Below, piece after piece: positions 6,020-38,703 of a DNA stretch of 51,056 nt. The notes under the pieces are model-generated. The model searched no databases and was not told where the DNA came from. It saw only the letters and a list, made by a program, of their open reading frames with translations. The stretch lies in the IMG/VR virus record IMGVR_UViG_3300030095_005945, positions 1 through 51,056 of that record; one strand, given 5' to 3'. Position numbers and translations under genes: made by a program. The number at the start of each line of letters is the position of its first letter. The first letter of the stretch is position 1. This DNA is from a virus. Lineage: Duplodnaviria > Caudoviricetes.

Positions 6020-6082
6020 CACAATGGCAGTTGCAACGGACTGTTAATCCGAGGGTTGTAGGTTCGACTCCTACCGCCCCAG
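6010..6082 (+). tRNA. tRNA-Asn (GTT), CCA not encoded
   Basis: Acceptor stem TGGGGCG/CGCCCCA, discriminator G, D arm GCA/TGC, anticodon arm CGGA-CTGTTAA-TCCG, T arm GTAGG-TTCGACT-CCTAC. Confidence 0.93.
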
Positions 6083-6091
6083 CAGAAAGGA

Positions 6092-6328
6092 GTGAATATG
6101 GTAAGTTTTACTCATTTTATAGTTATAGTAATGGGATTGGGAGTAGGAGAATACTTTAATTGTAAATATCCTAGAGTAGAAGATGGATATAGTAGTGAAG
6201 GATATGTTTGTAATTGGGAGGAAGACGATTTTTATTTAATAAATGGTCAACATATACTAACTCCTATAGATTCTACAGACAATTGTTTTGAGGAAAAAGC
6301 TCGTAAAAAGTATTGGGAGAAAAGGTAA
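6092..6328 (+). CDS. Small protein with N-terminal hydrophobic/signal segment and 3 Cys
   Basis: ORF track; AAAGGAG RBS suggests the start may be ATG 6098. Confidence 0.55.
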   Translation: MNMVSFTHFIVIVMGLGVGEYFNCKYPRVEDGYSSEGYVCNWEEDDFYLINGQHILTPIDSTDNCFEEKARKKYWEKR

Positions 6329-6438
6329 TGGAATTTTTAATAGCATTATTTAAAAGTTTCTTTATATCAATACCTATATTTATAATATATATAGCTATTA
6401 AAATCAAATGGAAACAGTGGAGAGAAAGCGAAAAATGA
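6328..6438 (+). CDS. 36-aa single-TM peptide
   Basis: MEFLIALFKSFFISIPIFIIYIAIKIKWKQWRESEK; TAATG coupling. Confidence 0.5.
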   Translation: MEFLIALFKSFFISIPIFIIYIAIKIKWKQWRESEK

Positions 6439-6439
6439 A

Positions 6440-6595
6440 TTGCATGAAGAATTAATTATTATAATTTTAGCTATATTCTTACATTACGCTATAGAATATG
6501 GTGGTAATTTAGGTAATTATAGTTGCCCAGATTATTGTAAAGTAAAACATGAACATATAAAGGATGAAAAAGATGAAACTAGAAAAACTAGGTAA
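6440..6595 (+). CDS. 51-aa membrane-anchored peptide with CPxYCxxxHxH motif
   Basis: TTG start; IIIILAIFL followed by YSCPDYCKVKHEH. Confidence 0.5.
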   Translation: MHEELIIIILAIFLHYAIEYGGNLGNYSCPDYCKVKHEHIKDEKDETRKTR

Positions 6596-16767: not shown

Positions 16768-19700
16768 ATGGAAGATTATCAAAACCCAACTGAAGATTAC
16801 TCTTTTAAGCCTGTATACACAGCAGATTTAACTAATCGTTTAGTTACTAATTATAGAAAAAATCCTAATAAATTCAATGAAAAACTTGTTTCTCAATTAG
16901 AGGAGCATGCTAATCATTATAATATTGGATTTAATCGTGATACTACGTCTGATGATTTTAATGCAATAGATACTATAAAACAAGTTGGAACTGGATTTAT
17001 GTCTGGTTTTACTACACTTAATTATGGTGAACCCCCTAAAAATCCTTATGAAAATATAGCTCATAGTTTAGGTCATTTAGCAGGATTTGTTGGATGGGTG
17101 CCTGGAGCTCATGCTAAAAGTAGTTTTGCAGCATTAAGAGCTTTATCTGTTTTAAAAGGTAAATCAATTCCACTAGTTGCAGCTAATGCTGTTCAAAAAC
17201 CTGTTTCTAATTTTGCTGCAGAAATGGTTCAAAAAGGTTTTGGAAAAAGAAGCGAAGCTGTATCTGGAGTAGCCAAGTTATTATACAACGATACAGCAAG
17301 AGATGCTGTTGAAGGAGCATTTCATTTGGGTACTGCATCTGCAGTATCATCCTGGACACATGGTGTTGATGCTATGATAGATTCTGCTATACATGGAGGT
17401 GTTGCAGGTGGTGCATTTAGAGGTATAGGAAACTTATTAAAATCTCCTTTACCAAAAGACAATGCAGTAGCAGAAAATGTACTTGGATCTGTTGCTGGTG
17501 CCTTATTTACAGGTCTTCCTGCCACAATGAGGGGAGCTACAGCTCCTGAGCAAGTATACGAATATTTATTAGGTGCATATTTTGGATTTAATGAATCACC
17601 TTCATCAAGAAGAGTAGCACAAAAATATAGATACGAAGAGCTTCAAAAACAACCTACTGCTCAAAAAATGCAAGAAAAGCTTGAAAAAGACTTGCTTAAA
17701 AAAGATTGGTCTCCAGAAACTCAAAAAGTTGTTAGAGAGTTTTCTGAACAAACTATACAAAGCGAACAAGTTATGGAGATAATGAGAAAGCTTGGAAGGG
17801 ACAATCCAGCTCTAAATCAGGCCTTAGAAGCTCGTTTTGTTGCTCAGGAAGGGAAACCTCCTACTCAAGAGCAAATAGAGCGTATAAAGGATAATATATT
17901 CAAAACAGAAACACCTGTTGAGCCTACTGAATTAGCAGATACTCCAAGAATTGAAACTGTAAAAAGATATAACAAAAGTATGCTAAGAGCTAATACTGAT
18001 AAAGTTTATTTATTTGGAGATAATTTAGAAGGTAGAGGAAAGGGTGGTCAAGCTGTAATTAGAGATGAGCCTAATTCATTTGGCATACCTACTAAAAAAT
18101 CGCCTAGAAGAGATTCTGATGCATATTTTATGGATGCAGAATTTGAAGCTAATAAAGTAGCAATAGATAATGCTATAAATGCAATTCCTAAAAATAAAAT
18201 AATAGTTTTTCCAGAAGATGGACTAGGAACTGGGTTAGCAAAGCTTCCTGAAAAAGCTCCTAGAACTTGGGAATATTTACAACAAAGGCTTGAAGGTTTA
18301 AAGAAAGAAGTTCAGTCTGAGAATATGATAAAAGAGATTGAAGTAAAAAATACAGAACAATCTCAAAAAGTTGAACAAGAAAAATTAGAAAGAGAAGATA
18401 CAGGAGTAGTTGTAGATGCTCCATTAAATATAAAAGATTGGGCATCTGATAATATAGTTAAAAGCTGGTTAAAAGAAGATGGAACTACTGATGTATTTAA
18501 AAAGAAAGCTAATATTGAAGACTTAAATTTAAAGCTTAGAGAAAAGATTAAAAATAGAGATATGGACATAGATGAGTTAACTAACTGGATGAAAGTTAGG
18601 TATAACTATGACATTACAAGTCCAGAAGCTACAGAAAGAAACTTTTTTAGAACATTTTTAAAGAGAAAGATTGCTGAACAAAATGTTAGAATAGTATCTC
18701 CTGAGCTTGAAATAGAGTATAAATTCACTCCAAAGAAAAGAAAAGGTAAAGTAGTAAAAGATGAAAGTGGAAATGTAGAGTTTTATAGAAACTTTCAAGA
18801 TATAAAAGATATTAATTTTACTGAGCTTACTCCTGATAACCCTCAAAATATAGCAGGCAATAGAAAGTCTATTAAAATGCCTGTATTTAATATTGAGAAT
18901 ATATATAATTCTATAAAAGGTGGTAATCTGAATCTATCAGATCCAAACCAAAGACCTCTTAGAGTAGTTGATGAAGTTATTATTAAATCTAAATCAGGAT
19001 TTCCAAAAGAAACTAATATGTTAGGCTTTAAAGATCAAGTAGAAAGACAAGTATACAATGACAATTTAAAGTTAAAAGGTCATGTTGCTGCTGAAAGTAT
19101 GGCAAAAAGAGTGTCTGAAGAAGCTTATAATAAATTTATAGGCAATATGTATGAAGGTATGCGAAAGAAGGGTTATTACTACTTTAGTGGAAGAGGTGAC
19201 GCTGATAAAATGATGTTTATGAAATATCATCCTGAAATAGAAGCTAAGAAACCTTATGAAATAAAGCAAATATTAAATGATATTATAAGAGAAAATAATT
19301 ATGATAAAAATCTAATCAATAAAGATAAATCTGATTTTGTTAAAAAGTTTAAAGATTTAAAAATAGCAGATGATGTTTATAACAGAGGATTTGTATCTAA
19401 TTTATATTACAATATGAGTATGAATGGGATTACTCCTGTAAAAGGGAATTATAATTTTGTAAATACCAAAGGATTCATTACTAATCCAATAGCGTTTAAT
19501 AAAAGAGCTCAAATATGGTTTACATCTGGTTATGAAATGGAACCTGCTTTTTTACAAAGAGAAATAAAAGACATGAAAGATGGTCAATTTAGAATGACTT
19601 TAACAAAATCTGTTGATGATTTGCCAGGCGAATTGAGAAAATTACCTTGGGAAAAGATGAAAAATACGGATACTGTAGAGCATGTTGATGGTGGAACTCC

Positions 19701-22700
19701 TACAAGAGATGATGTTATGACTGCTATACACAAAGAAACAGGAATGTACGATCCTTCAAATCCTAGTGGTCATAGTAAAAATATGACAATATCAATAGGA
19801 AACGAAGGTAAAGGTGCTATGCTATTAAAAGATATGAACTTTGATGCTGGAGTAAAACAATCTAAGGCAATGGAAAAGCTTGGAGTACATTTTATGCCTA
19901 ATACTACAGCTGCTAAACAGTATGGTAATAGGAAAGCTATGTTTCATGAGTTTGTAAAAGGTGAGTATAAGTTTTTTAATTGGGTAAAGAAAAAAGGCAA
20001 ATGGGTAAAAGAATATGGTGAACCTGAAATATTTGATGTTGATGTTAGAGATTTAAAAACAGTTCTATCAGAAACAACAGATACTAAGAATATAAAGAAT
20101 AAAAAGCTTGTAAAACAGATGCAGACTAATTTTTCATCTTTAAATAAAAACGTAACACCAGAATTAACAGAACAGTTTTATAATGATTACAATTTAAAGC
20201 ATTTTAATGGTAAACAAAGATATAATGATCTGTTAAAAGAATATGAAGCTACTAAAAATCCTGATTTAATAGAAAGTATAGTAAAAAATATAGAAAATAT
20301 ATCTACAACTGATGTAGCAAGAGTTCTTACTGAGCCTGGATTAGAAGAATTGCAACTAAGACTTTATGAAAAGCTATTTAGAATTAATAGGCAAAATGAA
20401 TTGCTTTCTTTAGAAGAGGGTGAAATTGGTGAAAAGGAAATATCAGATACTATAAGAGAACTTAATCAATACAAATCTACTGCAGATAGGAATCTTAAAT
20501 TAGCAGATAATAATATAGCCGTGTATTTACATAAAGCTCAAAGCCCTTTAAAAAGAAATATAATTAAGAATTACATAGTAGGTCAAATAACTAGACCTTT
20601 AGTTCCAAATTCATTAGGTGGAAGAATAAGGCCTTATGATGTAGAGCTTCAAATAAATCCAGCGACTAAAAGATTAAATAAAGAAAAAGATCTGATATTT
20701 TTAGATGATGGAGCTAAGGGTAAGAAGATAGATTACGAAGATTTAACAGCATTTTTAGAGTCAAGAACTAATCCTATTGTTAGAAAATCCGTTATTAAAC
20801 AGATTACAAAAAATGATACTTTAGAAAAATTATGGAATTATAGAAATGAAGCAGTTGGAACAAAAACTCAAGAATATATAGATAATTTTCTTGAAAGTAT
20901 TACTACAAGAGTTCCTATTGATTCTACAAGCGGATCAGTTGTATTAAAATTTGGTGGATTTACTGGTAGAAAAGGTTTTGGTGGAATAGTTCATGGTGAA
21001 GTTATGTCTAAAATAGGTGGTGCAGATACTGATGGTGATAAATTCTTTAGTTATTTTGGTATTAAACCTGAATATAAACAAGTATTTAGAGATAATGCAA
21101 ATGAATTTGTTAGATATTATAAAAAATCAGAATATTTAAAAAACCCAAATAAATTGACTTCTAAATTAACTAAAGAAGAATACGAAGCTTTACCTAAAAA
21201 AGAAAAAGAAGATTGGTATTCTGCTATATCTAATAATAAAAATGATTGGAGACATTTATATACTATAACAGAAGGAGAAGCTAAAGAAGTAAGACAAAAT
21301 CCTTCTATGTTTTATAGTGTTAATCAGAGAAAAGTTATTTCAGATGTTGCAGCAGATGGTCGTAATAGATTGGGAGTTGCTGTAGTAGATAAACAGAATT
21401 TATTAGCTGCTTATACTGATTTATTTTCAGCTGGCGTAAAAAGTAAGACTATTGAGCCAAGTGGATATGCTGAATACGATGTTAAATTAAGAACTGATGT
21501 AAAACAATTAAGCGAGGCTTTAGAAAAATTAAGAACATCTATAGCTATACCTTCTGATCCATTAGATGAAATTGGAATTAAAGGTAGAAGTGAATACTTT
21601 TCTAATATGTTTGATTCAATATTTGAAGTTACAGCTTATAGAAGAAGAAACTTAAAAACAAAGAAATGGGAAAATAAACCTGTCAGGCAAATAGAACCTT
21701 GGATGAAGCGATATATAATAGCTCCATATTCTAATATAAATTCTGCTTATTATGGTAAGAATTACTCTAAAAACAGGCAATGGACTTATGAAGAAATGAA
21801 AGACAAAGGTTCTTTTATAAATATTATAGCACAAAATGGCGATATAGTTTCTTCTATAGCAAGACAGGGTAGAGATTTGCAGAATATTAATTTCTATGAT
21901 GGGCTTGACAGAAGATTGAATAAAAAATCGGTAGCAAAAGTATATGATGAGTATTCTAAGAATATAAAAGATTATTATGATGTTGCAAAAGCTATAGGAA
22001 AAGCTGGATGGCAGGTTCCTTTAAATAAGCCGATTAGAGACTATTTAGGCTATAAAATAGAAAATATGGATAAGAAGCTACAAGCAGAGCAATTTCTATC
22101 GAATGACATGCATAATATGGCTTCATTTAATCAGTTTATAAAATACTGGAAAGAGATACCTACAGCTAAATTAACTGAAATGGCAAAAAAGGCACAAGAA
22201 ATACAAAATAAATCTTTCTTAAGTAGAATGGAAGATAAAGAAGCTATTAGATATGAAGTTAAGGTAGGTAAAGAAGTAAAAGAATTATCTAGCGAAGAGA
22301 TGAATATATTAAAAAGATCTGGTGAACAATTTGAAGTATTAAGAGATATTCCTTTAGAGAAGAAATCTACTATAGTTACACAGGCAAAAACAGATAAAGC
22401 TATATACGATTATAAAAGAACTTTAAATCCAAAAGAAAGACAAGCATTTGACGCTTTAATAATAAGTGGCTTTAAGCCTGGAGATGGTAAAAATGTAGAT
22501 AAATACTACAAGTTGTTAGACAAAAAAGATAGATTAACGCCTTTAGAGGAGATTGAGCTTGCAAGATTGAGAGATATAGTATATGCTACCAATTCTAATA
22601 GCTTAGGTTTTGCTAGTGAAGCAATATCAGATAATGTTATACAAGATTTTTGGAAGGGTTTTGATGGTGTGTATCATAAGATGTCAAGAAAACCATCTAA

Positions 22701-25700
22701 AGAACTAAGTGAAGATATTGATAATGTTGTTGAATCTGTTAAAAAAGTAGAAACTAAGGTTGGTGAAAAAGAAGTAAAAGCAAATCTTGAAGAAGGTTAC
22801 GAATCTAAGTTAGAAAAATTAAGAGTATTAGATAAGATTCCAGGCTTTAGAAGATTATCAGAGCAAAAAGCAGGTAAAGTAAAGCTTACAAACGAAAATC
22901 AAAAGCTATATGATGAGCTTTTAGACAATTTAAACTCTTATGGTAATAGCATAGGAATTAAGCTTGAAGGATTGATAGCAGATCTATTTAATAAATCACC
23001 AGATGCTATGACCATTGAGGATGTAAGAGCATTTAATCATTTACTTGGCTCAAGAAGAAAAGGTGACAATCTTGGCTGGATACATAATCAATTTATAAAA
23101 TGGACTAAAGGAGATCCAAAGTTAAGTGGATATTTTTACCATATATTCCCAAGAACTGTAGATAAAGCTTGGTTAAAAAAGGATTTAGATCTGGTTGAAA
23201 GAATAGGATATAAATGGGAGCCTGGGAAAAAATTACCTGTTGAATCCATAACATATAAACCATTGCACGCTATAGGGCAGATGCAATATAATAATAATGC
23301 ATTAAATCAAATGGCAGCTCATGAAGTTAATAAAATGGAAAGCAAGATAAGGGATGGATTACAGTTTTTAAATTCCATTAAAGAAGGAACTGAATTGCAT
23401 GAATTAGCTATATACAAAAGAGAATTACCAACTGGGCTTGCTTTATTTGAAAGTGGTGAAAAGATAAAAGCTACAGCTTATGGCGTAAGGAATGGCAGAT
23501 TACAGCCAAAGATTCAAAAAAGAATAGATGAGTTATCTGATAAAAAATATAGAATTTTAGATGGAAAGACTAAAAAGGATCTTACTGGTAGTCAAATAAT
23601 GGATAAGATTAATAAGTTTTGGAATAAAACATTTGATGATATGTATAATAATTGGATTTTTGGGGATAATCAATCTATAAAAAGATTTGTTTCTAGAGAT
23701 AAAAAAGGAGTAGAGTCTGGTAATATTGATACTTTTATAAAAGAAATTACAGACGCTATTAAAGAAGGTAGACCAGTACATGAAGCTGTTAAAATAGGTG
23801 TAGATGGTATAAATAAAATGGCTACTCATACTCAATTAAGCTTAACTAATAATCCTAAATTAAGAAACAAGCTTTACAATAGACTTGGAGAGTTTACAAA
23901 GTATAGATCAGGATTTTGGGGACATAGAAACTATGAAAAATCTGAAATAGAAAAAGCTTTAAAAAGCAGAATGGAAGAGCTAAAAAAGAAGAATATACCT
24001 GAAGAAGATAGACAGCAAATAGTAAATGAAGCAGCAAATTTAGCATTAAGAATGAGAAATATACAAGATGAATTTGATTTAAGTGCATATAAATCTTGGA
24101 ATATGTTTGATGAAGTTACGGATGCTATAAAAAATAAAATGGTTGATAAAATACAATTTGAAAATGCTGAGATTAGATCGGGACATACTATGGGAAGAAA
24201 GCTTCATATAGCGGGATATGATAGAAGTCCATCAGCAGGGGAAGGATACGCTAAAAGCGTTATAGAGAATTTCTATAAAAATACATCTCAAATATTAAGT
24301 AGAAAAATTATAGATAGATTTGAAAAAGCTAAAAGTCAGAAATATTTAAAAAATGGAAAGATTGTAGATAAGGCTGGGTATGATAATATACAAGCTTGGG
24401 GTAATTTCTTTAAATTATATGCTAATAGAGCGTTGGGCTATCCCGAAGTAATACCAGATTATCTATTAAACAATCCAAATATGGGGATAAAAGGAACGCC
24501 TTATTATTGGTTTGCTGATTCTACTGTTAAAAATAGAATGAACATCATAGCTAAAAAAATGGGTATAAAAAACAAGGATATACCAAAAGAAATAGATGAG
24601 ATGCTATCTTATAATAAAATAAGAAACTGGAGTAATATGGAAGCTAAATATCAATTAGCTACATTATTAGCTCATCCAAAAACTGCGATAGCAAATATAT
24701 TTGGTGGATCTACTATGACAATTCAGTCTGTTGGATTAAGAAATTGGTCAAAGGTAAGAAATTATGAATGGTTAAAAAATAATGTAGATTCTAGTTTTAC
24801 ATCTAGGCAATCTATATATGATCATGTTGTAAAATTAGGTGTTCAAGAAGATTTTTTAAGGAAAGAGATTGGCTTGTCTGGTGCAGCTAAAAGTAAAAAA
24901 GTAAGTGATGGATTAGAGCTTTTGGCTAAAAAGATTAAAAGAGATCCAAGTGTTGAAGATAAAGAGTTAAAAGATATATGGAAAAAATCAGGGTTATCTG
25001 ATAGTTTATTTGAAAAAGCAGCTTATTTTATGAGAAAATCTGAAAGAATGTTGAGAACAGATTCATATATGGCTCATTTATTACAAGGATTAGATATATT
25101 TAAAGGAGCTATAAACGATATTAATCATCCGTTTCTTGTATGGTGGGCTAAAGAAGGTGTAAAAAATACTCAGTTTTTATATGATGCTTCAAATAGACCA
25201 GCTTTTGCATCGAGTGCATTAGGAAAGGTTGTTTCAAGATTCCAAATATGGGCTTGGAACTCAGTTGCTTTTAGAAGTATGGTATATAGAGAGGCCAAAG
25301 AAAGAGGATTTCAAAGAGGAACAAAAGAATTTGAAAGATTTAAAAGAACAATGCAAATGGATCTTATGATGTTTTCTTTAGCAAATGTATTTGCATATAG
25401 TTTATTTGAAAATACTTTACCTGCACCATTAAATTGGTTCCAGGATTTAGCAGATTGGATGTTTGGAGATGAAAGTGAACGAGATAGAGCATTTTTTGGA
25501 GCTTATCCTAAAGCAATAGCACCATTACAAATGGTTACTCCTCCAGCTTTAAGATTATTACCACCTACTATGAAAGCATTATTAGATGATGATTGGAGTA
25601 GAATGTCTGATTATTATTTATGGACGGTATTGCCATTTGGAAGGTTAGCAAGGGATGTTAAAATATCGGCTGAAAATCCAATGCAAATTGTGGAAAGAAG

Positions 25701-25761
25701 TACAGGATTACCTTATATTAAATTACATAGGTATTTAAAAGAGCAAAGAGAACTTGAATAG
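16768..25761 (+). CDS. Giant virion protein, putative single-chain two-barrel RNA polymerase with macrodomain-like insert
   Basis: TRVP...IVHG...GGADTDGDKFF (DxDGD at 21025-21039); HVDGG and downstream lysines near aa 972-1030; LFGDN...GGQA...GIPTK...GLGTGLA at aa ~412-500; Gly/Ala-rich N-terminus. Confidence 0.7.
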   Translation: MEDYQNPTEDYSFKPVYTADLTNRLVTNYRKNPNKFNEKLVSQLEEHANHYNIGFNRDTTSDDFNAIDTIKQVGTGFMSGFTTLNYGEPPKNPYENIAHSLGHLAGFVGWVPGAHAKSSFAALRALSVLKGKSIPLVAANAVQKPVSNFAAEMVQKGFGKRSEAVSGVAKLLYNDTARDAVEGAFHLGTASAVSSWTHGVDAMIDSAIHGGVAGGAFRGIGNLLKSPLPKDNAVAENVLGSVAGALFTGLPATMRGATAPEQVYEYLLGAYFGFNESPSSRRVAQKYRYEELQKQPTAQKMQEKLEKDLLKKDWSPETQKVVREFSEQTIQSEQVMEIMRKLGRDNPALNQALEARFVAQEGKPPTQEQIERIKDNIFKTETPVEPTELADTPRIETVKRYNKSMLRANTDKVYLFGDNLEGRGKGGQAVIRDEPNSFGIPTKKSPRRDSDAYFMDAEFEANKVAIDNAINAIPKNKIIVFPEDGLGTGLAKLPEKAPRTWEYLQQRLEGLKKEVQSENMIKEIEVKNTEQSQKVEQEKLEREDTGVVVDAPLNIKDWASDNIVKSWLKEDGTTDVFKKKANIEDLNLKLREKIKNRDMDIDELTNWMKVRYNYDITSPEATERNFFRTFLKRKIAEQNVRIVSPELEIEYKFTPKKRKGKVVKDESGNVEFYRNFQDIKDINFTELTPDNPQNIAGNRKSIKMPVFNIENIYNSIKGGNLNLSDPNQRPLRVVDEVIIKSKSGFPKETNMLGFKDQVERQVYNDNLKLKGHVAAESMAKRVSEEAYNKFIGNMYEGMRKKGYYYFSGRGDADKMMFMKYHPEIEAKKPYEIKQILNDIIRENNYDKNLINKDKSDFVKKFKDLKIADDVYNRGFVSNLYYNMSMNGITPVKGNYNFVNTKGFITNPIAFNKRAQIWFTSGYEMEPAFLQREIKDMKDGQFRMTLTKSVDDLPGELRKLPWEKMKNTDTVEHVDGGTPTRDDVMTAIHKETGMYDPSNPSGHSKNMTISIGNEGKGAMLLKDMNFDAGVKQSKAMEKLGVHFMPNTTAAKQYGNRKAMFHEFVKGEYKFFNWVKKKGKWVKEYGEPEIFDVDVRDLKTVLSETTDTKNIKNKKLVKQMQTNFSSLNKNVTPELTEQFYNDYNLKHFNGKQRYNDLLKEYEATKNPDLIESIVKNIENISTTDVARVLTEPGLEELQLRLYEKLFRINRQNELLSLEEGEIGEKEISDTIRELNQYKSTADRNLKLADNNIAVYLHKAQSPLKRNIIKNYIVGQITRPLVPNSLGGRIRPYDVELQINPATKRLNKEKDLIFLDDGAKGKKIDYEDLTAFLESRTNPIVRKSVIKQITKNDTLEKLWNYRNEAVGTKTQEYIDNFLESITTRVPIDSTSGSVVLKFGGFTGRKGFGGIVHGEVMSKIGGADTDGDKFFSYFGIKPEYKQVFRDNANEFVRYYKKSEYLKNPNKLTSKLTKEEYEALPKKEKEDWYSAISNNKNDWRHLYTITEGEAKEVRQNPSMFYSVNQRKVISDVAADGRNRLGVAVVDKQNLLAAYTDLFSAGVKSKTIEPSGYAEYDVKLRTDVKQLSEALEKLRTSIAIPSDPLDEIGIKGRSEYFSNMFDSIFEVTAYRRRNLKTKKWENKPVRQIEPWMKRYIIAPYSNINSAYYGKNYSKNRQWTYEEMKDKGSFINIIAQNGDIVSSIARQGRDLQNINFYDGLDRRLNKKSVAKVYDEYSKNIKDYYDVAKAIGKAGWQVPLNKPIRDYLGYKIENMDKKLQAEQFLSNDMHNMASFNQFIKYWKEIPTAKLTEMAKKAQEIQNKSFLSRMEDKEAIRYEVKVGKEVKELSSEEMNILKRSGEQFEVLRDIPLEKKSTIVTQAKTDKAIYDYKRTLNPKERQAFDALIISGFKPGDGKNVDKYYKLLDKKDRLTPLEEIELARLRDIVYATNSNSLGFASEAISDNVIQDFWKGFDGVYHKMSRKPSKELSEDIDNVVESVKKVETKVGEKEVKANLEEGYESKLEKLRVLDKIPGFRRLSEQKAGKVKLTNENQKLYDELLDNLNSYGNSIGIKLEGLIADLFNKSPDAMTIEDVRAFNHLLGSRRKGDNLGWIHNQFIKWTKGDPKLSGYFYHIFPRTVDKAWLKKDLDLVERIGYKWEPGKKLPVESITYKPLHAIGQMQYNNNALNQMAAHEVNKMESKIRDGLQFLNSIKEGTELHELAIYKRELPTGLALFESGEKIKATAYGVRNGRLQPKIQKRIDELSDKKYRILDGKTKKDLTGSQIMDKINKFWNKTFDDMYNNWIFGDNQSIKRFVSRDKKGVESGNIDTFIKEITDAIKEGRPVHEAVKIGVDGINKMATHTQLSLTNNPKLRNKLYNRLGEFTKYRSGFWGHRNYEKSEIEKALKSRMEELKKKNIPEEDRQQIVNEAANLALRMRNIQDEFDLSAYKSWNMFDEVTDAIKNKMVDKIQFENAEIRSGHTMGRKLHIAGYDRSPSAGEGYAKSVIENFYKNTSQILSRKIIDRFEKAKSQKYLKNGKIVDKAGYDNIQAWGNFFKLYANRALGYPEVIPDYLLNNPNMGIKGTPYYWFADSTVKNRMNIIAKKMGIKNKDIPKEIDEMLSYNKIRNWSNMEAKYQLATLLAHPKTAIANIFGGSTMTIQSVGLRNWSKVRNYEWLKNNVDSSFTSRQSIYDHVVKLGVQEDFLRKEIGLSGAAKSKKVSDGLELLAKKIKRDPSVEDKELKDIWKKSGLSDSLFEKAAYFMRKSERMLRTDSYMAHLLQGLDIFKGAINDINHPFLVWWAKEGVKNTQFLYDASNRPAFASSALGKVVSRFQIWAWNSVAFRSMVYREAKERGFQRGTKEFERFKRTMQMDLMMFSLANVFAYSLFENTLPAPLNWFQDLADWMFGDESERDRAFFGAYPKAIAPLQMVTPPALRLLPPTMKALLDDDWSRMSDYYLWTVLPFGRLARDVKISAENPMQIVERSTGLPYIKLHRYLKEQRELE

Positions 25762-27525: not shown

Positions 27526-27722
27526 TATTTTTTCCTTTTTACTTTTGACCAGTTTTTCTTACCTGTTTCTCTTTGTGCACATTTTTCACAAATAATAAAA
27601 TCTATTTTTGAATCTAAAGGATACAACTCTTTAAATAATAATACATATTGATATGAATGTGTTGGTATGTACTTGCTACACATTTCACATTTATCTCTTC
27701 GTATTCCTAAGTATTTTATCAT
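27525..27722 (-). CDS. Small zinc-finger protein
   Basis: CEMC...CEKC. Confidence 0.6.
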   Translation of the reverse strand: MIKYLGIRRDKCEMCSKYIPTHSYQYVLLFKELYPLDSKIDFIICEKCAQRETGKKNWSKVKRKK

Positions 27723-27731
27723 TTAATTTAT

Positions 27732-27812
27732 AAAGCAGGTAGCTAAATGAAGTGTGCGAATGCACTTGTGCTAGATTTGTTCATTTAAGGCGTTAAGAAG
27801 CGTACCTGCTTT
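27732..27812 (-). ncRNA. End-paired structured RNA element (81 nt)
   Basis: Closing stem AAAGCAGGTA/TACCTGCTTT; inner stems TAAATGAA/TTCATTTA and AAGTG/CACTT. Confidence 0.5.
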
Positions 27813-27817
27813 AATTT

Positions 27818-28096
27818 TTAGTAGTTATACTTTATATGATTATTAATCAAAAAGTTTTTAATCCACCAACATCTTCCATTATCAGAAGCTATATTAGCTG
27901 CTTTTATATGTCTTTGATGTGTAGTGTATTTATGATAAGGACTTGTATATATATACGGCTTCCTTTCTTTGTGAATTTTAACTCCACTTTTAGCCACCTT
28001 ACTCATTTCAGTTAATGTTATCATTTGTAATTGTCTCCTTTCGATAACTTTCTTAGTATGTATTTTTGCATTTCTTCTGGCTGTCTTTTGATCCAC
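27818..28096 (-). CDS. Basic hypothetical protein
   Basis: ORF track; overlaps the HNH 3' end, start uncertain. Confidence 0.5.
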   Translation of the reverse strand: MDQKTARRNAKIHTKKVIERRQLQMITLTEMSKVAKSGVKIHKERKPYIYTSPYHKYTTHQRHIKAANIASDNGRCWWIKNFLINNHIKYNY

Positions 28097-32868: not shown

Positions 32869-33459
32869 TTATTTGATTTTCTCATAGATATGAGTTATGT
32901 TATTACTATTATCATAACACTTTAAACAATCTATGCAAGAACCAAAACAATTTGTTTTATTATCTACCTTACTTTGTACGATAAATATCTTATCAAAATG
33001 CTTTGGTAGCTTACTTTTTCCGTCTACATCTTCTTCTGAATAAACAAGGATTAAGTTATTTGGTTTTCCCGTAGCTTTAATAGCTTTCCAGGCTAAAGTT
33101 TTCCTTTTTGTCCATAATGCAAATGTAGTTTTTGGTGCAAGTTTGCATATTTTGAATAAATTAATAGTATGATTAAGGTTAATTAGTTCTCCGTGTGCAG
33201 AAAATCTTACATACAAAGCGTTTGGTGGCTTTGGTAAGTATTCTGATGGGTGAACTTTTTTGCTTAAAAATTCTCCATACTTTCTAAATGCTGGATCAGC
33301 AGTTTTTCTGAAAGTTTTAAGCATGTTAATACTATAACAACTTCCGCAAATACTACCAGGTTTCTTGCTCATAGCTTTGCAGAAGCTGTTATTTAGTGGA
33401 GATGTGTTTAAGCCAGGAATACCTTTCAATTTTCCTGTCATTACACTATATTTTACCAT
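32869..33459 (-). CDS. GP88-like Cys-rich protein
   Basis: FC...GSICGSCYS, VRFSAHGEL, FALWTK, C-terminal CFGSCIDCLKCY. Confidence 0.65.
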   Translation of the reverse strand: MVKYSVMTGKLKGIPGLNTSPLNNSFCKAMSKKPGSICGSCYSINMLKTFRKTADPAFRKYGEFLSKKVHPSEYLPKPPNALYVRFSAHGELINLNHTINLFKICKLAPKTTFALWTKRKTLAWKAIKATGKPNNLILVYSEEDVDGKSKLPKHFDKIFIVQSKVDNKTNCFGSCIDCLKCYDNSNNITHIYEKIK

Positions 33460-33468
33460 AGCATCTCC

Positions 33469-33828
33469 TTAATGTATTGTAAAGCCTCCTGAATCTCTGC
33501 AAAATTCTATAAAATCTAATACATTGTCTAGAGTAAGAGGATAATTTTTGTTAAATTCCTTCTCTTCAGCTCTTCTTTCTTCGTATTCTTTTATATCAGC
33601 ATGTATTTCTTCTAGATTATCTAATAGTCTTTTGCATATTTTGTTAGCTTTCTTTCCTACTATAGCATGGCCATTATTCCAACCGCCAGCTTCTATGTCG
33701 TCTTCAGTCAATATATCTTCACAATGTACACATATTAGTTTCCATAATGGTCTCCAATACCATACATTGTTTCTAAAATAATGACCTTTTTCTGTTTGAG
33801 GGTCTAGCCCGTAGATATCGAATCCCAT
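33469..33828 (-). CDS. Early hypothetical protein
   Basis: MGFDIYG...YFRNNVWYWRPLW...FIEFCRDSGGF. Confidence 0.7.
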   Translation of the reverse strand: MGFDIYGLDPQTEKGHYFRNNVWYWRPLWKLICVHCEDILTEDDIEAGGWNNGHAIVGKKANKICKRLLDNLEEIHADIKEYEERRAEEKEFNKNYPLTLDNVLDFIEFCRDSGGFTIH

Positions 33829-34079
33829 TATGCATGCTCCTGTAACATATCTTCAAGCTCATTTAAAGCTTCTCCAATATTATCTAGATTATCTCTTGCA
33901 CATGACATTTCATCTTCTGCACTTACCATTGAATCTAATGTATCGCCAATTCTATTTCTAATTGATTCTATTTCTTTAGAAAAGTCGAGTCTTTCAGCTT
34001 TATGATAACCTTTTAGATTCTCTATTACAGTCTCTAATGTTTTTATATCATCTTTTAAGTTATTAAATTCTAAAGCCAT
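33828..34079 (-). CDS. Acidic coiled-coil early protein
   Basis: ORF track; coupled. Confidence 0.65.
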   Translation of the reverse strand: MALEFNNLKDDIKTLETVIENLKGYHKAERLDFSKEIESIRNRIGDTLDSMVSAEDEMSCARDNLDNIGEALNELEDMLQEHA

Positions 34080-34083
34080 GATT

Positions 34084-34602
34084 TTAAGCTCCTAGTTGTG
34101 GCACATTAGCACCTTTTAGTATTTTATTAACCTCATGCATCAAACCATCAAGTTCAGCTACTCCATGCAACTTATCACAAGCAGCTCTTTTCTTAGCTTC
34201 CAACTCTTTAATCATTTTACCTGATTTAGTTTCAGTTTCTTGACCAAGAGCTGTTTGATTACAAAGATATCTAAATGCTTTATCTGTATCACTGTAAGAA
34301 GAACCGCTGTATAATGATGGCACTCCAGAGTCGTATCTTTCTTTACCTAGATTCTTTAAAAGCTCATCATAAACAGCAACTAAACCTTGAGACAATCTAT
34401 CGTATCTTTCTTTAACTTTTCTATATTGAGCCATTGATTTGTCTACTTTAAGAGATTTTAAATACCTTTTGTATTCTGCTTCAGATAGCTTTTGAACATC
34501 TGATGCTCTTTGTTGTTTAAGTACAGCTATCTTTTCATCAATAGCTTCTTCTATTCTTTTAGTAAAATACTTTCTTTGTTGTACACTTATTTTATTTGAC
34601 AT
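34084..34602 (-). CDS. Helical early hypothetical protein
   Basis: ORF track; AAGGA RBS. Confidence 0.7.
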   Translation of the reverse strand: MSNKISVQQRKYFTKRIEEAIDEKIAVLKQQRASDVQKLSEAEYKRYLKSLKVDKSMAQYRKVKERYDRLSQGLVAVYDELLKNLGKERYDSGVPSLYSGSSYSDTDKAFRYLCNQTALGQETETKSGKMIKELEAKKRAACDKLHGVAELDGLMHEVNKILKGANVPQLGA

Positions 34603-34613
34603 TTCGTTTTCCT

Positions 34614-34865
34614 TTATCTTAAGACTGGTAATACTTCTTCAGTCGTTTCTGTTAAACATGTTAATACTCCACCATCATTACCCTCATCATCCATCTGAGC
34701 TATAACTCTGGTGCCATCATCTAAGAAAAATGTAATTGGTCTTTTATACCAATCATATCTTTCGCATTCTTCTTTAGGCATATACTCAACTTTAATAATT
34801 CTTTTGTTAAGCAATGCTTTTTCAGCTACTCCTGTCCATTTTTTAGTTATCTGTTTATCTGTCAT
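34614..34865 (-). CDS. Early hypothetical protein
   Basis: ORF track; DDEGNDGG motif. Confidence 0.7.
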   Translation of the reverse strand: MTDKQITKKWTGVAEKALLNKRIIKVEYMPKEECERYDWYKRPITFFLDDGTRVIAQMDDEGNDGGVLTCLTETTEEVLPVLR

Positions 34866-35050
34866 ACTTTCTCCTTATGATTTTCTTTAATCCAATGAGA
34901 TACAGCTAATAAAGAATGGAATATATGGTTATTATCTATACCTCTATTAATTTCTTCTTCATAATGCTGTTCTTCTTGCTCTAAATACATATCAACTATT
35001 TTAGCTAAATGATACATAATTGGGTCACAATCATTGGTATAATTACTCAT
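34862..35050 (-). CDS. Early hypothetical protein
   Basis: ORF track; AAGGAG RBS. Confidence 0.6.
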   Translation of the reverse strand: MSNYTNDCDPIMYHLAKIVDMYLEQEEQHYEEEINRGIDNNHIFHSLLAVSHWIKENHKEKV

Positions 35051-35300
35051 TACTATCTCCTTCTGGATTTTTATGAAATAGTATATAGTTTTTAGCTAAT
35101 GTATTCCATACAACCATAAATGCTGTAGCTACATGAAACCGATGCTCTTTAGGCAATGCTTCTGTAATCATATCAACATATTCTTGTGCTGTTTGAATAT
35201 CTTTTCTTGAAGCAAATATAGTATGCTCTTTCATATCTACATACGGAAGCTTACTAACTACCTCCATTAATTTATCTCTATTTTCACTCATTTGACTCAT
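35043..35300 (-). CDS. Early hypothetical protein
   Basis: ORF track; AAGGAGG RBS. Confidence 0.65.
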   Translation of the reverse strand: MSQMSENRDKLMEVVSKLPYVDMKEHTIFASRKDIQTAQEYVDMITEALPKEHRFHVATAFMVVWNTLAKNYILFHKNPEGDSNE

Positions 35301-35413
35301 TTGACCTCCTTGTGGATCATTTTGTACAATATGAATGCAACAATAGCTAAATGCATCATTGATTCTGTTGTACTGTTTATTAAATAAATATACTCATATA
35401 GTTTATCACCCAT
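35297..35413 (-). CDS. 38-aa membrane peptide
   Basis: AGGAG RBS; MGDKLYEYIYLINSTTESMMHLAIVAFILYKMIHKEVK. Confidence 0.5.
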   Translation of the reverse strand: MGDKLYEYIYLINSTTESMMHLAIVAFILYKMIHKEVK

Positions 35414-35432
35414 ATGTTCTCCTATAAATTAT

Positions 35433-35502
35433 AGAGCAGGGCATACTGGCGTATTCATGTATGCTATTTAAAGAGAGCTACTCTTCCTTGCCACTCTGCT
35501 CT
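35433..35502. ncRNA. End-paired structured RNA element A (70 nt)
   Basis: Closing stem AGAGCAG/CTGCTCT; inner GCATAC/GTATGC and AGAG/CTCT; strand ambiguous. Confidence 0.45.
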
Positions 35503-35517
35503 TTTTGTACAAATACA

Positions 35518-35585
35518 AGAAGGTATCAAATATGGATATCATTTATTAAGCATTACCGCTCCACTTTCGTTAAATGATACCTTCT
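35518..35585 (-). ncRNA. End-paired structured RNA element B (68 nt)
   Basis: Perfect 11-bp closing stem AGAAGGTATCA/TGATACCTTCT. Confidence 0.5.
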
Positions 35586-35592
35586 AAATTAA

Positions 35593-35850
35593 TGAGACTA
35601 CATTCGTCAGGCCTGGCATAGTCTTTTTATCCTGATTCTTAAGTAGTTATAATGAGGTCTTACTTGTCAATGCCTTATCTGTAAACCCATAGTTCGTCCA
35701 AGGGACTTGCCCTTGAGGCTTTTTTATGTGATTCCGATACCTCTTTTTACAGATGCTTACAATAGTATCTCAGCGTGTTTAGGACTTATATACTAGCTTA
35801 ACTCTGATAATAACATTTATCACTTATCGCCACCCAAAGAGGTAGTCTCA
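35593..35850 (-). ncRNA. Large multi-helix structured RNA candidate C (258 nt)
   Basis: Closing TGAGACTAC/GTAGTCTCA; inner ATCTGTAAA/TTTACAGAT, CAAGGG/CCCTTG, TGATAA/TTATCA, TAGTAT/ATACTA, TCAGG/CCTGA; no ORF of 60 aa or more. Confidence 0.55.
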
Positions 35851-35857
35851 AATTATA

Positions 35858-35974
35858 TTATGCTCCTCGTGCAATCACTTGTGTTTTGCATCTTTTGCAT
35901 ATAAATTTCCTTCTAAATAATTTTATTCCCGAATACTTTCTACATTTACATCTGATATGTTTGTTGATATCCAT
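35858..35974 (-). CDS. 38-aa basic zinc-ribbon peptide
   Basis: AAGGAG RBS; MDINKHIRCKCRKYSGIKLFRRKFICKRCKTQVIARGA. Confidence 0.6.
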   Translation of the reverse strand: MDINKHIRCKCRKYSGIKLFRRKFICKRCKTQVIARGA

Positions 35975-35993
35975 TTATACTCCTTAAAATTTA

Positions 35994-36081
35994 TCCCTGC
36001 TATAGTCTTTGGTCAGAAAGATAATATCTAATCACCAACTTATCCAAAAGTCTATGATTCAATAAGCTACTATAACAGGGA
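35994..36081 (-). ncRNA. End-paired structured RNA element D (88 nt)
   Basis: 13-bp closing stem UCCCUGUUAUAGU/ACUAUAGCAGGGA (G-U only on minus strand) plus two inner hairpins. Confidence 0.5.
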
Positions 36082-36094
36082 ATTTTAATAAAAA

Positions 36095-36168
36095 AGAGGG
36101 ATAGTGAAGTTGAATCTCATCTAAGTGAGAATGATTTTATTCGCATGAACCATCTTGTCTATCCCTCT
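36095..36168 (-). ncRNA. End-paired structured RNA element E (74 nt)
   Basis: Perfect 10-bp stem AGAGGGATAG/CTATCCCTCT, inner TCTCA/TGAGA; followed by a U-run on the minus strand. Confidence 0.5.
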
Positions 36169-36182
36169 GACTCCACAAGATT

Positions 36183-36329
36183 CTATCTCCAGTTTTGATC
36201 TTGATCTTGTACTTGTGAAGCTTGCCATTCTAACTCTTGTAAATCATCACAATGGCATTCAATACTATTACACGCTCTACACTTTAATACTATTTTCATT
36301 TCTTTAAAATACTCCCATACTTTACTCAT
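36183..36329 (-). CDS. 48-aa Cys-rich peptide
   Basis: ATGA-coupled; ...KCRACNSIECHCDDLQELEW... Confidence 0.5.
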   Translation of the reverse strand: MSKVWEYFKEMKIVLKCRACNSIECHCDDLQELEWQASQVQDQDQNWR

Positions 36330-36664
36330 GGCGACATATATCCTAATGATTCAATAGTATCTTCTTGTGCTTCCTGGCGTTTCTTCCATCTCTTGCCTCG
36401 TGTTTCAGGATACATCTCTTGACACTTACGGCTTGAACGTCTGATATTAGCAGGAGAGGACATCATTCCTTCTTTCTTCATATAATAATAAGCACTTATT
36501 CGACAGTCTTTAAATTTCTTTATAGATCTGTCATAATTTATCCTTAAGCCTTGTCCTTCATACTCTTGCTTATGTACTAAATACTCTAAAGTATGATAAC
36601 AATCAGCTGCTTCAGGATGCTTTAATATAATTGCTTTAACTTTATCTATTACTTTAACTTTCAT
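36326..36664 (-). CDS. Basic early hypothetical protein
   Basis: ORF track; AGGAG RBS; SPANIRRSSRKCQEMYPETRG. Confidence 0.7.
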   Translation of the reverse strand: MKVKVIDKVKAIILKHPEAADCYHTLEYLVHKQEYEGQGLRINYDRSIKKFKDCRISAYYYMKKEGMMSSPANIRRSSRKCQEMYPETRGKRWKKRQEAQEDTIESLGYMSP

Positions 36665-36666
36665 TA

Positions 36667-36966
36667 TTACTCCTTTTCCATATGGCTATTAATAGCAGCA
36701 GAAGATATAAATGAATCGCTTTTATCTAACTTATCAAAATACTTTTTATGGAAAGATAAAGCTTCTTCATTTGTATTAAATACTTTGCCTTTAGTCCCTC
36801 TTCTATCAAAGTACCATTGTTGAAGCCAATCATACTTACTATTAAATGCGATATCATTTATCATATCATCTTTTACTTTAGCTAGGTTGTTTAATCTTTT
36901 ACCTTCATCCCATCCATCTGCAAAACTATAGATGGCGTTTGCTAATGCTTTACCTATTACTTTCAT
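36667..36966 (-). CDS. Early hypothetical protein
   Basis: AGGAG RBS favours ATG 36966 over the ORF-track start at 36999. Confidence 0.6.
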   Translation of the reverse strand: MKVIGKALANAIYSFADGWDEGKRLNNLAKVKDDMINDIAFNSKYDWLQQWYFDRRGTKGKVFNTNEEALSFHKKYFDKLDKSDSFISSAAINSHMEKE

Positions 36967-37039
36967 AATTATACTCCTATGGTTTTGGTAGTAGCACAAC
37001 TATTACTACTACCATTATTAAATACAATTCCATTGCCAT

Positions 37040-37249
37040 TTATTTACCTCCATACTTATGTTCACCTAATAATGCCTCTGATATTTCCAATGACCAACCA
37101 AGACTCATATTATACTCTATAGTATCGTAGTCATCTTCCATACAAACACATCCTTTATCACGACAAGATATCCAATCTTTAACCATTTGAATGGACTTAT
37201 TTATCTTCCTTTGCATTTTATCATTAAGTTCTTTGTTCTCTAATTCCAT
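37040..37249 (-). CDS. Early hypothetical protein
   Basis: ORF track; coupled. Confidence 0.6.
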   Translation of the reverse strand: MELENKELNDKMQRKINKSIQMVKDWISCRDKGCVCMEDDYDTIEYNMSLGWSLEISEALLGEHKYGGK

Positions 37250-37545
37250 TATAAACCTGCTTTCATCTTTATGAATTGAACTAATGACATATTACGTGCA
37301 TCATACCTCTTAACACGTCTTAATGTGTCTTGTACCTCTAATAACTGCTGAAATCTCTCTTTACGAGCATTATCCATCTGAATAATAGCTTGTTCTTCTA
37401 TAGGTCTATTAATAAATATATCTAACTTCATTTTATTACTTATTGTTTCGCTATAATTTCTAACAGATGCTGTTGTTTCCCATCTATCTTGCATTTCTGT
37501 ATACTTTACTAATACTTTATTAATATATTGTGTTACTCTATCCAT
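37249..37545 (-). CDS. Early hypothetical protein
   Basis: ORF track; AAGGAG RBS. Confidence 0.65.
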   Translation of the reverse strand: MDRVTQYINKVLVKYTEMQDRWETTASVRNYSETISNKMKLDIFINRPIEEQAIIQMDNARKERFQQLLEVQDTLRRVKRYDARNMSLVQFIKMKAGL

Positions 37546-37581
37546 GCTTATTTCTCCTTATCTTGTGAATGTAATAATACA

Positions 37582-37613
37582 CAAAAGGTGAGCTAATCAT
37601 CATTAACCCACCT
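37582..37613 (-). terminator. Intrinsic terminator-like hairpin
   Basis: Minus strand AGGUGGGUUAAU-GAUG-AUUAGCUCACCU then UUUG; G-U pairs are minus-specific. Confidence 0.55.
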
Positions 37614-37627
37614 AATTGTATGTGTAA

Positions 37628-37650
37628 TAAAGGGACTATATGTCCCCTTA
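37628..37650 (-). terminator. Hairpin right after the first early gene
   Basis: Minus strand UAAGGGGAC-AUAUA-GUCCCUUUA. Confidence 0.45.
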
Positions 37651-37652
37651 TA

Positions 37653-37967
37653 CTATATCATCCAGCTACCAGGCTTTATAGCATTAGTATCATCATCTTT
37701 AACGCTATCTTCAAGTATCTTCATATCAGCTTTATGGTCTCTTACAGTTGTCTTACATAGTATTAACTGCATGCTTTCAGGTATGTATGATACTCTTCTA
37801 CCATGCTTACTTGCTTGGTCGTTTAAATCATTTAACTGTGGCTTAAGCATGTTATAAGTATATTCACTTACATTATACCAGTTCCATCCATTCTCTGCTT
37901 TATTTAAACCATGATTATAATCAGTATAATTAAGCATTTTTGTTATCATTACTATTATTTTATTCAT
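37653..37967 (-). CDS. First gene of the minus-strand (early) arm, hypothetical
   Basis: ORF track; AAAGG RBS. Confidence 0.65.
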   Translation of the reverse strand: MNKIIVMITKMLNYTDYNHGLNKAENGWNWYNVSEYTYNMLKPQLNDLNDQASKHGRRVSYIPESMQLILCKTTVRDHKADMKILEDSVKDDDTNAIKPGSWMI

Positions 37968-38000
37968 TATTACCTTTCTTCTTTGTGTTTATTAATATAT

Positions 38001-38090
38001 AGAGGATAGCAGGGGCGTGAGGACATCACTACACGATTGAATTTCAAGAGAGCTCGGAGGGTAGCAGGGTGAAATTCAAGCGGGTAGGGT
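38001..38090. promoter_or_regulatory. G-rich divergence element with inverted repeat (candidate terminus, origin or phage-RNAP promoter)
   Basis: TTGAATTTCA-N23-TGAAATTCAA (38037-38079); TAGCAGGG x2; four GGG tracts. Confidence 0.45.
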
Positions 38091-38156
38091 TGTAACATAT
38101 CAAACACTCCCATTCTACGGCAATTTTTTTGAAATTTATTTTTTTAAGATTTTTAC

Positions 38157-38325: not shown

Positions 38326-38703
38326 ATGGATAATCTAAGTGATTACGAAGAAAGGTTAAGTAAGGGTTGGCCACATGGTGGTCCTTCTAATATATTTTCT
38401 AGTAGTGAATATAATATAAATCCAGATAGCCCTTTAGGCAATTGGGTAGCAAGAGAGGGTGTTCCAGGTAGCTATTATAATAAAAGGTTTAATGAGAACC
38501 CTTACATGTATCCTAATATGCCAGATAGTATGCTTAATATCCATAACAAACATCACAATATACCTATGAATCCCTCAGAAATGGATAGTATGAGGCAGGT
38601 TAATCCATTAGCTAACGCTTGGTACACATTAAAAGAAGGTTTAGGCTTTTCGCCTTTTTCCTTTGAAAAGAGTGGTGATCCAAGAAAAGTTTTTGGAGAA
38701 TAA
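38326..38703 (+). CDS. Hypothetical P/N-rich protein
   Basis: ORF track; GAGG RBS. Confidence 0.6.
   Translation: MDNLSDYEERLSKGWPHGGPSNIFSSSEYNINPDSPLGNWVAREGVPGSYYNKRFNENPYMYPNMPDSMLNIHNKHHNIPMNPSEMDSMRQVNPLANAWYTLKEGLGFSPFSFEKSGDPRKVFGE

Follow-up and report, generated by a model that had tools for sequence, protein, structure and literature searches.

Much less is known about the non-coding RNAs of phages than about their proteins. The tRNA gene cluster of phage T4 contains two small stable RNAs, species 1 and 2 (rnaC/rnaD), of unknown function, and the C4 antisense RNA of phages P1 and P7, for which an Rfam family exists, is cut from a longer transcript by RNase P. Early genes of T7 are separated by RNase III sites, single long irregular duplexes of about two helical turns, and operons of E. 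coli carry the highly repeated intercistronic stabilisers REP (repetitive extragenic palindrome) and BIME (bacterial interspersed mosaic element); both kinds of structure define processed ends and protect mRNA segments. Repeated composite promoter/terminator DNA motifs that act by homologous recombination, termed PeSLs (promoter-early stem-loops), are described for T4-type phages (PMC4122927). Here we analyze a tandem array of end-paired RNA modules of an uncultured marine phage, in the IMG/VR virus record IMGVR_UViG_3300030095_005945 (Duplodnaviria; Caudoviricetes), whose whole length of 51,056 bp is called the window; it is estimated to be 96% complete and has a G+C content of about 31%. The modules are very likely real RNAs on the strand of the leftward operon in which they lie. 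Comparison with related phages points to new RNA families that covary, of which this one early operon holds no fewer than four (A, B, D and the frame of C), while the relatives carry G, H and F in addition.

The array is located in a stretch of 769 nt without a long open reading frame (ORF) (35414-36182), bordered by a 48-aa Cys-rich ORF (36183-36329, minus strand) and a 38-aa ORF (35297-35413, minus strand). Reading the sequence directly, we found the five end-paired units, their closing stems and linkers as well as a sixth unit outside the array where the original prediction had placed them, together with the 38-aa ORF predicted between C and D (orf38). The predicted lengths were correct for A, B, D and E; unit C was claimed to be 258 nt and is 2 nt shorter (Table 1). 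Adjacent units are separated by linkers of 8-15 nt. Perfect inverted repeats of at least 9 nt with a spacer of 20-300 nt are denser here than elsewhere in the window: 100 were found in the 51 kb, and six of them lie wholly within the 0.77-kb gap.

Table 1. Positions of the RNA modules and associated features. Coordinates refer to the window unless a contig is given.
Feature	Position	Strand	Description
Unit A	35433..35502	-	70 nt; 7-bp closing stem; three-way junction
Palindrome	35504..35513	none	TTTGTACAAA; just upstream (RNA sense) of unit A
Unit B	35518..35585	-	68 nt; 11-bp closing stem
C-B linker	35586..35593	-	AUUAAUUU
Unit C	35594..35849	-	256 nt; 8-9 bp closing stem; conserved outer frame, lineage-specific interior (~35641-35797)
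Hairpin inside unit C	35693..35722	-	GCCUCAAGGGCAAGUCCCUUGGACGA; terminator-like flag on plus strand
orf38	35858..35974	-	38-aa basic Cys-rich (CxC...CxxC) protein gene in the array; AAGGAG upstream
Unit D	35994..36081	-	88 nt; 13-bp closing stem with one G.U; conserved internal loops; variable middle hairpin
E-D linker	36082..36094	-	A/U-rich, ends AAAAU(U)
Unit E	36095..36168	-	74 nt; 10-bp closing stem, then UUUUUUAUU; first unit past the stop of the 48-aa ORF
Sixth unit	27732..27812	-	81 nt; 11-bp closing stem; flanks AAAAAUU and AUAAAUU
F motif, examples in relatives	L031:1937-2014; L066:321-397; L052:8461-8518		

The units stand out from chance through conservation with compensatory changes in relatives, which concerns A, B, D and the frame of C, weakly the sixth unit, and not E. 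The first four are 76-100% conserved at the nucleotide level in contigs in which the neighbouring 172-aa protein is only 46-51% identical. Relatives were collected in three ways. Protein anchors gave two close relatives and one more distant one, and a metagenome scan with the 172-aa protein yielded 16 marine contigs. Exact-pattern scans with conserved pieces of A and of D each retrieved the same 11 IMG/VR contigs, the pattern for A matching one more contig (L026) by chance. A distant relative (L004) contains no gap comparable to that of the array, and the 85-aa neighbour protein retrieved no relatives when used as an anchor. Among isolated phages, neither blastn of the region nor the 172-aa protein gave a match, and the terminase is less than 28% identical to any record, leaving no close isolated phage.

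Unit A was aligned without gaps in 15 copies, 13 of them distinct. Its model comprises helices P1 (7 bp), P2 (6 bp) and P3 (6 bp), and J1/2 (UGGS) pairs with the P3 loop (SCCA) to form a 4-bp pseudoknot; 97.3% of the cells are paired. Nine of the 23 pairs change on both sides, compared to 0-3 in slid-partner controls, and no shuffle equalled the observed covariation score. Independent switches come from L035, L015 and L025 and affect the pseudoknot pair 15-55 (L035) and the pairs 45-60 and 41-64. The helices of A, and its pseudoknot too, keep their pairing through compensatory changes in related phages. Pair 19-35 is an invariant G.U (13/13 distinct copies) and would be a C.A mismatch on the other strand; it fits only the minus strand, which is the operon sense. 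About half of the unpaired positions are invariant. A covariance model of A run against 85 further marine phage loci (0.83 Mb with the window) recovered the window copy and a single hit with an E-value of 0.78; thus A is specific to its clade. Cellular genomes gave 0 matches. In most relatives the unit is flanked by other units and not by an ORF, which argues that it is not a leader there.

At the palindrome just upstream of A the relatives carry TTTGTACAAA, TTGGTACCAA or TTGGTWACCAA, with symmetric changes between lineages. Its loop is too short for a stable RNA hairpin, so this DNA palindrome may instead be recognised by a dimeric protein or serve in the dimerisation of the RNA.

A second copy of unit B was found in a contig with otherwise unrelated genes and a higher G+C content (L153, 1190-1290, minus strand). 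Here the interior of 51 nt is 100% identical, while the 10-11-bp closing stem has a completely different sequence (ACAGGCAUCA.../...UGGUGCCUGU) in which every change is compensated; the unit is likewise flanked by UUAAU.../AAAAUU. Because the identical core sits among unrelated genes, it points to a single RNA module that was recently transferred between different phages. In the two close relatives L002/L003 unit B and its 3' linker are cleanly missing.

Unit C had been predicted to be one RNA of 258 nt. Instead, comparison revealed a conserved outer frame around lineage-specific inserts. The frame begins with GAGACUACCUCUUUGGGUGGC... and a hairpin and ends with ...GCCAGGCCUGACGAAUGUAGUCUC; it is built from two helices, the outer one of 8 bp, and a single hairpin, with two insertion points that are filled differently in each lineage. 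It is present in L002, L008, L014 and L025, with total lengths of 88, 177, 204, 256 and 258 nt, the interior of about 187 nt being replaced by one of about 27 nt in L002/L003. Base changes within the frame affect one side of a pair and leave the pairing intact (G-C to G.U, G.U to A-U). The hairpin listed in Table 1 for the interior corresponds to the variable hairpin of the F motif (see below) in L071, with a compensatory A-U to C-G change.

The closing stem of unit D is retained in all 12 copies aligned, with one compensatory change, in the window copy, and a U.G pair present in 11 of the 12 fits the minus strand only. The middle hairpin is swapped wholesale between sub-lineages, so that the total length varies from 86 to 146 nt. 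Directly after D follow AUAAAUUUUAAGGAG and the start of orf38 in the window, and AUAAA(C)UUUAAGGAG (a variant in L034) plus an ATG is found after D in 16/16 copies, leading into at least eight different N-termini. Since a Shine-Dalgarno sequence (SD) and the start codon of differing genes follow in all copies, D appears to behave as a portable structured 5' leader acting in cis. The orf38 gene is conserved (83-93% of nucleotides) in L002, L003, L005, L006, L015, L016 and L017, and its Pfam matches are zinc ribbons, all below threshold. As a separate observation, C (35612-35626) and D (35996-36010) of the window have 15 nt in common close to the 3' strand of the closing stem (RNA sense: AAAGACUAUGCCAGG and AAAGACUAUAGCAGG). 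The stretch is missing from the other C copies and may be a recombination scar of the rearrangement that placed D upstream of C in the window lineage.

Unit E has no homolog in any of the loci fetched and no exact match of its core in IMG/VR; in L002/L003 its slot is occupied by unrelated, unstructured sequence (z -0.3). The support for E is folding only, with no comparative support. The sixth unit sits between two small ORFs, genes not listed for the interval 27526-28020 (minus strand) and both conserved in the relative G001. One encodes 61 aa (MSKVAKSG...DNGRCWW...), the other, which starts right after the unit, a CxxC...CxxC zinc ribbon of about 60 aa. At 83% identity, the homologous gap of G001 has a single compensatory exchange in the closing stem (U-A to C-G) but does not preserve the inner helix; G001 is the sole relative having the unit.

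Blastn of the units against the related loci showed that A, D, both ends of C and orf38 recur as separate, reordered blocks. In RNA sense the order is E-D-orf38-C-(B)-A-(F) in the window and L002/L003, with E replaced and an extra end-paired unit F following A in the latter two; in 12 other loci it is G-(F or others)-A-(H)-D-gene. Units B, F and H are cleanly present or absent between relatives, and their insertions resemble a unit plus linker added after AWTT(T), a pattern that recombination at the linkers could equally explain. Overall, the comparison indicates that modules are gained, lost, reordered and nested among relatives, mostly at A/U-rich AAUU(U) linkers. Unit G begins at the stop codon of the upstream ORF in 11/11 copies; its 12-bp hairpin is 100% paired in all eight that are distinct. 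Two of the pairs have changed on both sides, G.U steps occur several times, and a strand-specific G.U/U.G pair (A.C on the other strand) is invariant (8/8). An identical 34-nt core of unit H occurs under two unrelated closing stems, once nested inside F.

The F motif is not found in the window but occurs in the arrays of relatives, either free-standing or nested in C or D. It consists of a closing helix, AAYAACUGGUCCUGUAAGUCC, a variable hairpin, GGCAAAGGAAUAUGUGA and the closing helix again. The 18-nt 3' core is present in at least 120 IMG/VR stretches, and among the matches listed 104 distinct copies also have the 5' core. We aligned 49 of 57 copies of up to 92 nt, leaving out L025 (nested, with a different closing helix) and the near-identical L090, L109, L121, L129, L131, L138 and L139. 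The 8-bp closing helix is 100% paired in these 49 copies and 7/8 pairs have changed on both sides. Rfam gave no match to the motif in the ten relatives, the L025 array and seven small F-bearing loci. F usually lies 10-40 nt before the SD of varied genes, some contigs carrying two copies, and the largest downstream clusters encode proteins of about 597 aa and about 561 aa. A search of 185,579 species genomes returned 26 exact hits to the core, compared with about 17 expected by chance for 18 bases in 596 Gb by our own arithmetic; 25 were in unrelated sequence and one had the whole motif (L167). The last is a 26.7-kb contig of a Flavobacteriales metagenome-assembled genome, and its motif and the copy of viral contig L092 are identical. 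The L167 contig is probably phage DNA that was binned with that genome, and it gives only a weak hint about the host. F probably represents a novel and widespread RNA of phages that acts in cis regulation or binds a protein.

In L025 a tRNA-Met(CAT) gene (L025:7723-7795; ARAGORN; Rfam 58 bits) occupies a slot that separates G from the unit following it, bounded by short linkers of the same kind. With a tRNA gene inside it, the transcript of this array must be processed, and we regard this as the best indirect support for the idea of processed RNAs. A tRNA inside the array was found in one of the 20 related loci scanned; the window array is without one, the only tRNA of the window being 29 kb away on the other strand. 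By reading, the acceptor stem of the L025 tRNA-Met has a U1-U72 mismatch. The end-paired unit J (L025:7801-7882, also in L028) was considered as a derivative of a tRNA 5' half; the resemblance is by eye only and no tRNA model calls it.

The original prediction had drawn attention to AAUU(U) next to several units, similar to RNase E sites. This holds for some of the units: the motif abuts the 5' ends of C, B and the sixth unit, i.e., three of six units, or four of six if the first U-A pair of D is left uncounted. Linker motifs thus abut unit 5' ends far above chance, which is 0.014-0.017 per random position; the binomial test used the count of four in six. Among relatives, the sequence upstream of F, of D, of the tRNA and of the palindrome next to A likewise ends in ...UAAUU or ...AAAAUU. 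The linkers fit the published RNase E core motif RN|WUU (PMC5222698) and would be single-stranded sites between structured domains.

Known classes of elements do not account for the units. ARAGORN at default, 90% and 80% settings calls no tRNA in the array or the sixth unit and only tRNA-Asn (6010-6083) in the window; at a 70% threshold the calls in the array and the sixth unit are scattered and inconsistent. The Rfam tRNA model gave no hit at an E-value of up to 10 in 35200-36400. A second array suspected after the tRNA-Asn (5990-6570) was rejected since the region appeared to be coding. The statement that the units are not CRISPR repeats also holds, the 769 nt containing only two short direct matches of chance size (15 and 13 nt, 87-92%), and the units share architecture and not sequence: blastn finds no match of one to another, and there are no shared repeats. 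In the Rfam scan that had been suggested (Rfam 15), no unit matched any family at the gathering threshold and the window gave tRNA only; at an E-value of up to 10 the interval 35200-36400 returned four hits of 16-20 bits, the thresholds being 45-65. Ten related loci at gathering threshold yielded tRNA only, and the L025 array at an E-value of up to 10 tRNA plus noise. Repetition of the type seen for PeSLs, REPs or miniature inverted-repeat transposable elements (MITEs) was not found in the window: the model of A matches it once, each unit matches only itself and there are no direct repeats. Several further candidates were dropped, namely a hammerhead core (junction sequences unsuitable), a purine-riboswitch-like three-way junction (no Rfam hit), an integron attC site (no R-box at the borders, by reading only), a replication origin (no skew switch at the array) and a CsrA-type GGA sponge (GGA motifs not consistently retained). 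A literature search gave no description of the motifs or arrays; it did not cover the supplementary motif lists of large RNA-discovery papers.

The original prediction saw in the array a polycistronic cassette of processed small RNAs that might act as decoys, sponges, antisense or anti-defence RNAs. It is supported in part, in that the array very likely consists of independent sense-strand RNA modules in a leftward operon, joined by A/U linkers that fit the motif above. Against a uniform cassette, D behaves as a leader, C is a frame with inserts and E is without comparative support. With moderate confidence we therefore favour a mixed model: a cluster resembling a tRNA operon, in which processed small RNAs and a leader would arise by cleavage of the early transcript within the linkers. 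Each module would be a conserved core closed by a helix of freely changing sequence, and short AAUU(U) linkers rich in A and U would join the modules in one polycistronic early transcript. A host endonuclease of the RNase E type would most likely cut these linkers as in a tRNA operon. A, B and C would be released as free-standing stable small RNAs that act through their conserved loops and pseudoknot and probably bind a protein, D would stay on the downstream mRNA as structured 5' leader, and E might stabilise the 3' end of the message before it or terminate that message leakily. What the alignments show is the existence of the modules, the strand on which they lie, the covariation within them and a turnover like that of cassettes; that the modules are transcribed, cleaved, stable and possibly active in trans is what we infer. 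A cluster of processed stable RNAs is favoured by the invariant loops and pseudoknot of A, by the cores of B, H and F that tolerate any closing helix, by the turnover of cassettes and by the tRNA in an array. D, G, the sixth unit and perhaps E would fit roles in cis at cistron borders.

A number of results count against the mixed model. In the first test proposed for the array, the comparison with dinucleotide shuffles, folding energy does not single out the region. A sliding scan of the minus strand (90-nt windows, step 30, 33000-38100, 40 dinucleotide shuffles each) showed no excess stability in the gap: its 23 windows have a mean z of -0.09 with 0/23 below -2, compared to a mean of -0.71 for the 138 windows outside. 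Folding in register gave z-scores of -1.9 (A), -3.5 (B), +0.2 (C as a whole unit), -4.5 (D), -3.0 (E) and -3.6 (sixth unit), values that are biased since the coordinates were picked for paired ends; the whole gap (20 shuffles each) has a z of -2.0 on the minus and -2.8 on the plus strand. Most of the double changes in A separate two lineages and thus represent few events. The A/U linkers are partly expected, as the genome is A/T-rich. No promoter or terminator pattern stands out: a consensus scan found 14 promoter-like sites with 12.6 expected, and the one terminator-like site is on the wrong strand. A search for RNA sequencing runs matching 34600-36700 listed none.

Some of the positions of the units also fit a role purely in cis, in which the units would be intercistronic punctuation, i.e., 5' leaders or 3' end structures of the neighbouring genes that set mRNA stability, processing and translation, with no functional small RNA. 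We consider this possible but doubtful. D precedes an SD and ATG in every copy, G starts at a stop codon, the sixth unit lies between two small ORFs, an SD stands immediately after A in the window, L008 and L014, E comes after a stop codon and has a U run at its end, relatives have small accessory ORFs interposed between units, and the widespread F usually stands shortly ahead of an SD. However, two to five units are adjacent without ORFs, and A, F, H and B are flanked by units in most arrays. The many invariant unpaired bases of A and its pseudoknot exceed what a stabilising hairpin needs, and L025 has a tRNA gene in the same array.

A further reading goes beyond the mixed model. The units could be horizontally exchanged, trans-acting and protein-binding small RNAs, cut at the AAUU linkers, that sequester host factors or defence sensors during takeover; such RNA-gene cassettes would pass among unrelated marine phages, a closing helix being all that each requires. 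Unit A might then be a mimic of tRNA topology. In this model its 7-bp "acceptor" would stack on the 6-bp "T-like" arm and the GG of the junction would pair with the far loop in the manner of D and T loops. We regard this as unlikely. If it were true, accessory anti-defence gene islands would have an RNA equivalent in the array.

It is very unlikely, in our estimation, that the elements work at the DNA level, as recombination hot spots, remnants of mobile cassettes (PeSL-like or MITE-like) that shuffle early genes, or hairpins of single-stranded DNA in replication, the RNA being without function. Modules come and go at AWTT(T) junctions that resemble short duplications, they are nested in the loops of others (the F core in C of L008 and L025 and in D of L034), the cores of B and H are identical between unrelated phages, pointing to recent transfer, and a symmetric palindrome lies upstream of A. 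Yet each unit is single-copy in the genome, unlike PeSLs, REPs and MITEs, and the units have no common end sequences, so that a single transposase or recombinase could not recognise all of them. Moreover, helices keep their pairing through G.U intermediates on one strand only, A has a covarying loop-to-junction pseudoknot that a duplex DNA site would not need, and the array is not located at a skew switch. That the units are functionless chance hairpins in an A/T-rich spacer left by gene decay is hardly credible and realistic only for E: the flat sliding scan, the missing homologs of E and an interior of C that differs in every lineage would agree with it, but for A, B, D and the frame of C it is disfavoured by the compensatory changes and by conservation well above that of the 172-aa neighbour.

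The minus-strand genes that run from about 38100 down to 26100 encode a primase/helicase, a Sak4-like annealing protein and many small ORFs, and rightward genes for terminase, portal and capsid start at 38326. The leftward arm is thus taken as the early/replication operon, an inference in which "early" comes from the gene layout. Small proteins of the neighbourhood gave only sub-threshold Pfam matches, and other gaps of the early arm contain ordinary hairpins. Two strong hairpins in tandem (37546-37652, minus strand, z -6.4), both with a U run behind them, lie near the beginning of the leftward operon and some 1.4 kb upstream of the array. They look like intrinsic terminators; if they are, expression downstream would depend on read-through or antitermination. 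On the plus strand a 2997-aa ORF (16768-25761) has DUF7831 (residues 398-506) as its sole family match and adjoins ORFs of 1490 and 806 aa without matches; for a phage of 51 kb such proteins are unusually large.

The modules behave like cassettes, with a conserved core, an exchangeable closing helix, insertion into the loops of others and occurrence in phages that are otherwise unrelated. Should they prove to be processed small RNAs, the array would be an early-expressed RNA island of a new type, present in abundant ocean phages, and compact RNAs with pseudoknots could readily be drawn from it for work on structure and binding. Should they act in cis instead, they would form a natural collection of insulators or leaders that can be transferred between polycistronic messages. 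On either reading the families are now open to modelling and searching.

Among the known systems, the T4 tRNA cluster seems to be the closest functional analogue. Both have tandem, tRNA-sized, end-paired RNAs in one phage transcription unit with short spacers, and as non-tRNA stable RNAs stand beside tRNA genes in T4, so the modules of one relative (L025) share their array with a tRNA-Met. In contrast to T4, the window array contains no tRNA, its units are not tRNA-like (ARAGORN, Rfam), D leads protein genes and small ORFs lie inside the array. C4 is likewise a small end-paired phage RNA in an operon and is released from a precursor; the window units, however, match no Rfam family and are without a 3' CCA-like tail. 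The T7 RNase III sites and REP/BIME elements are intercistronic structures that share architecture rather than sequence, as the units do. The stems of the window differ from the T7 sites in that they are 7-13 bp long and enclose branched cores, with a pseudoknot in A, and its units differ from REPs in being single-copy and in standing several together without cistrons between them. The closest evolutionary analogue appears to be the PeSL cassettes (PMC4122927). These are also short conserved intergenic elements that border small variable genes in plastic phage regions, and they are tied to the insertion, deletion and replacement of modules between close relatives. Unlike PeSLs as described there, the units of the window are single-copy, mutually dissimilar and multi-helix, and they covary as RNA.

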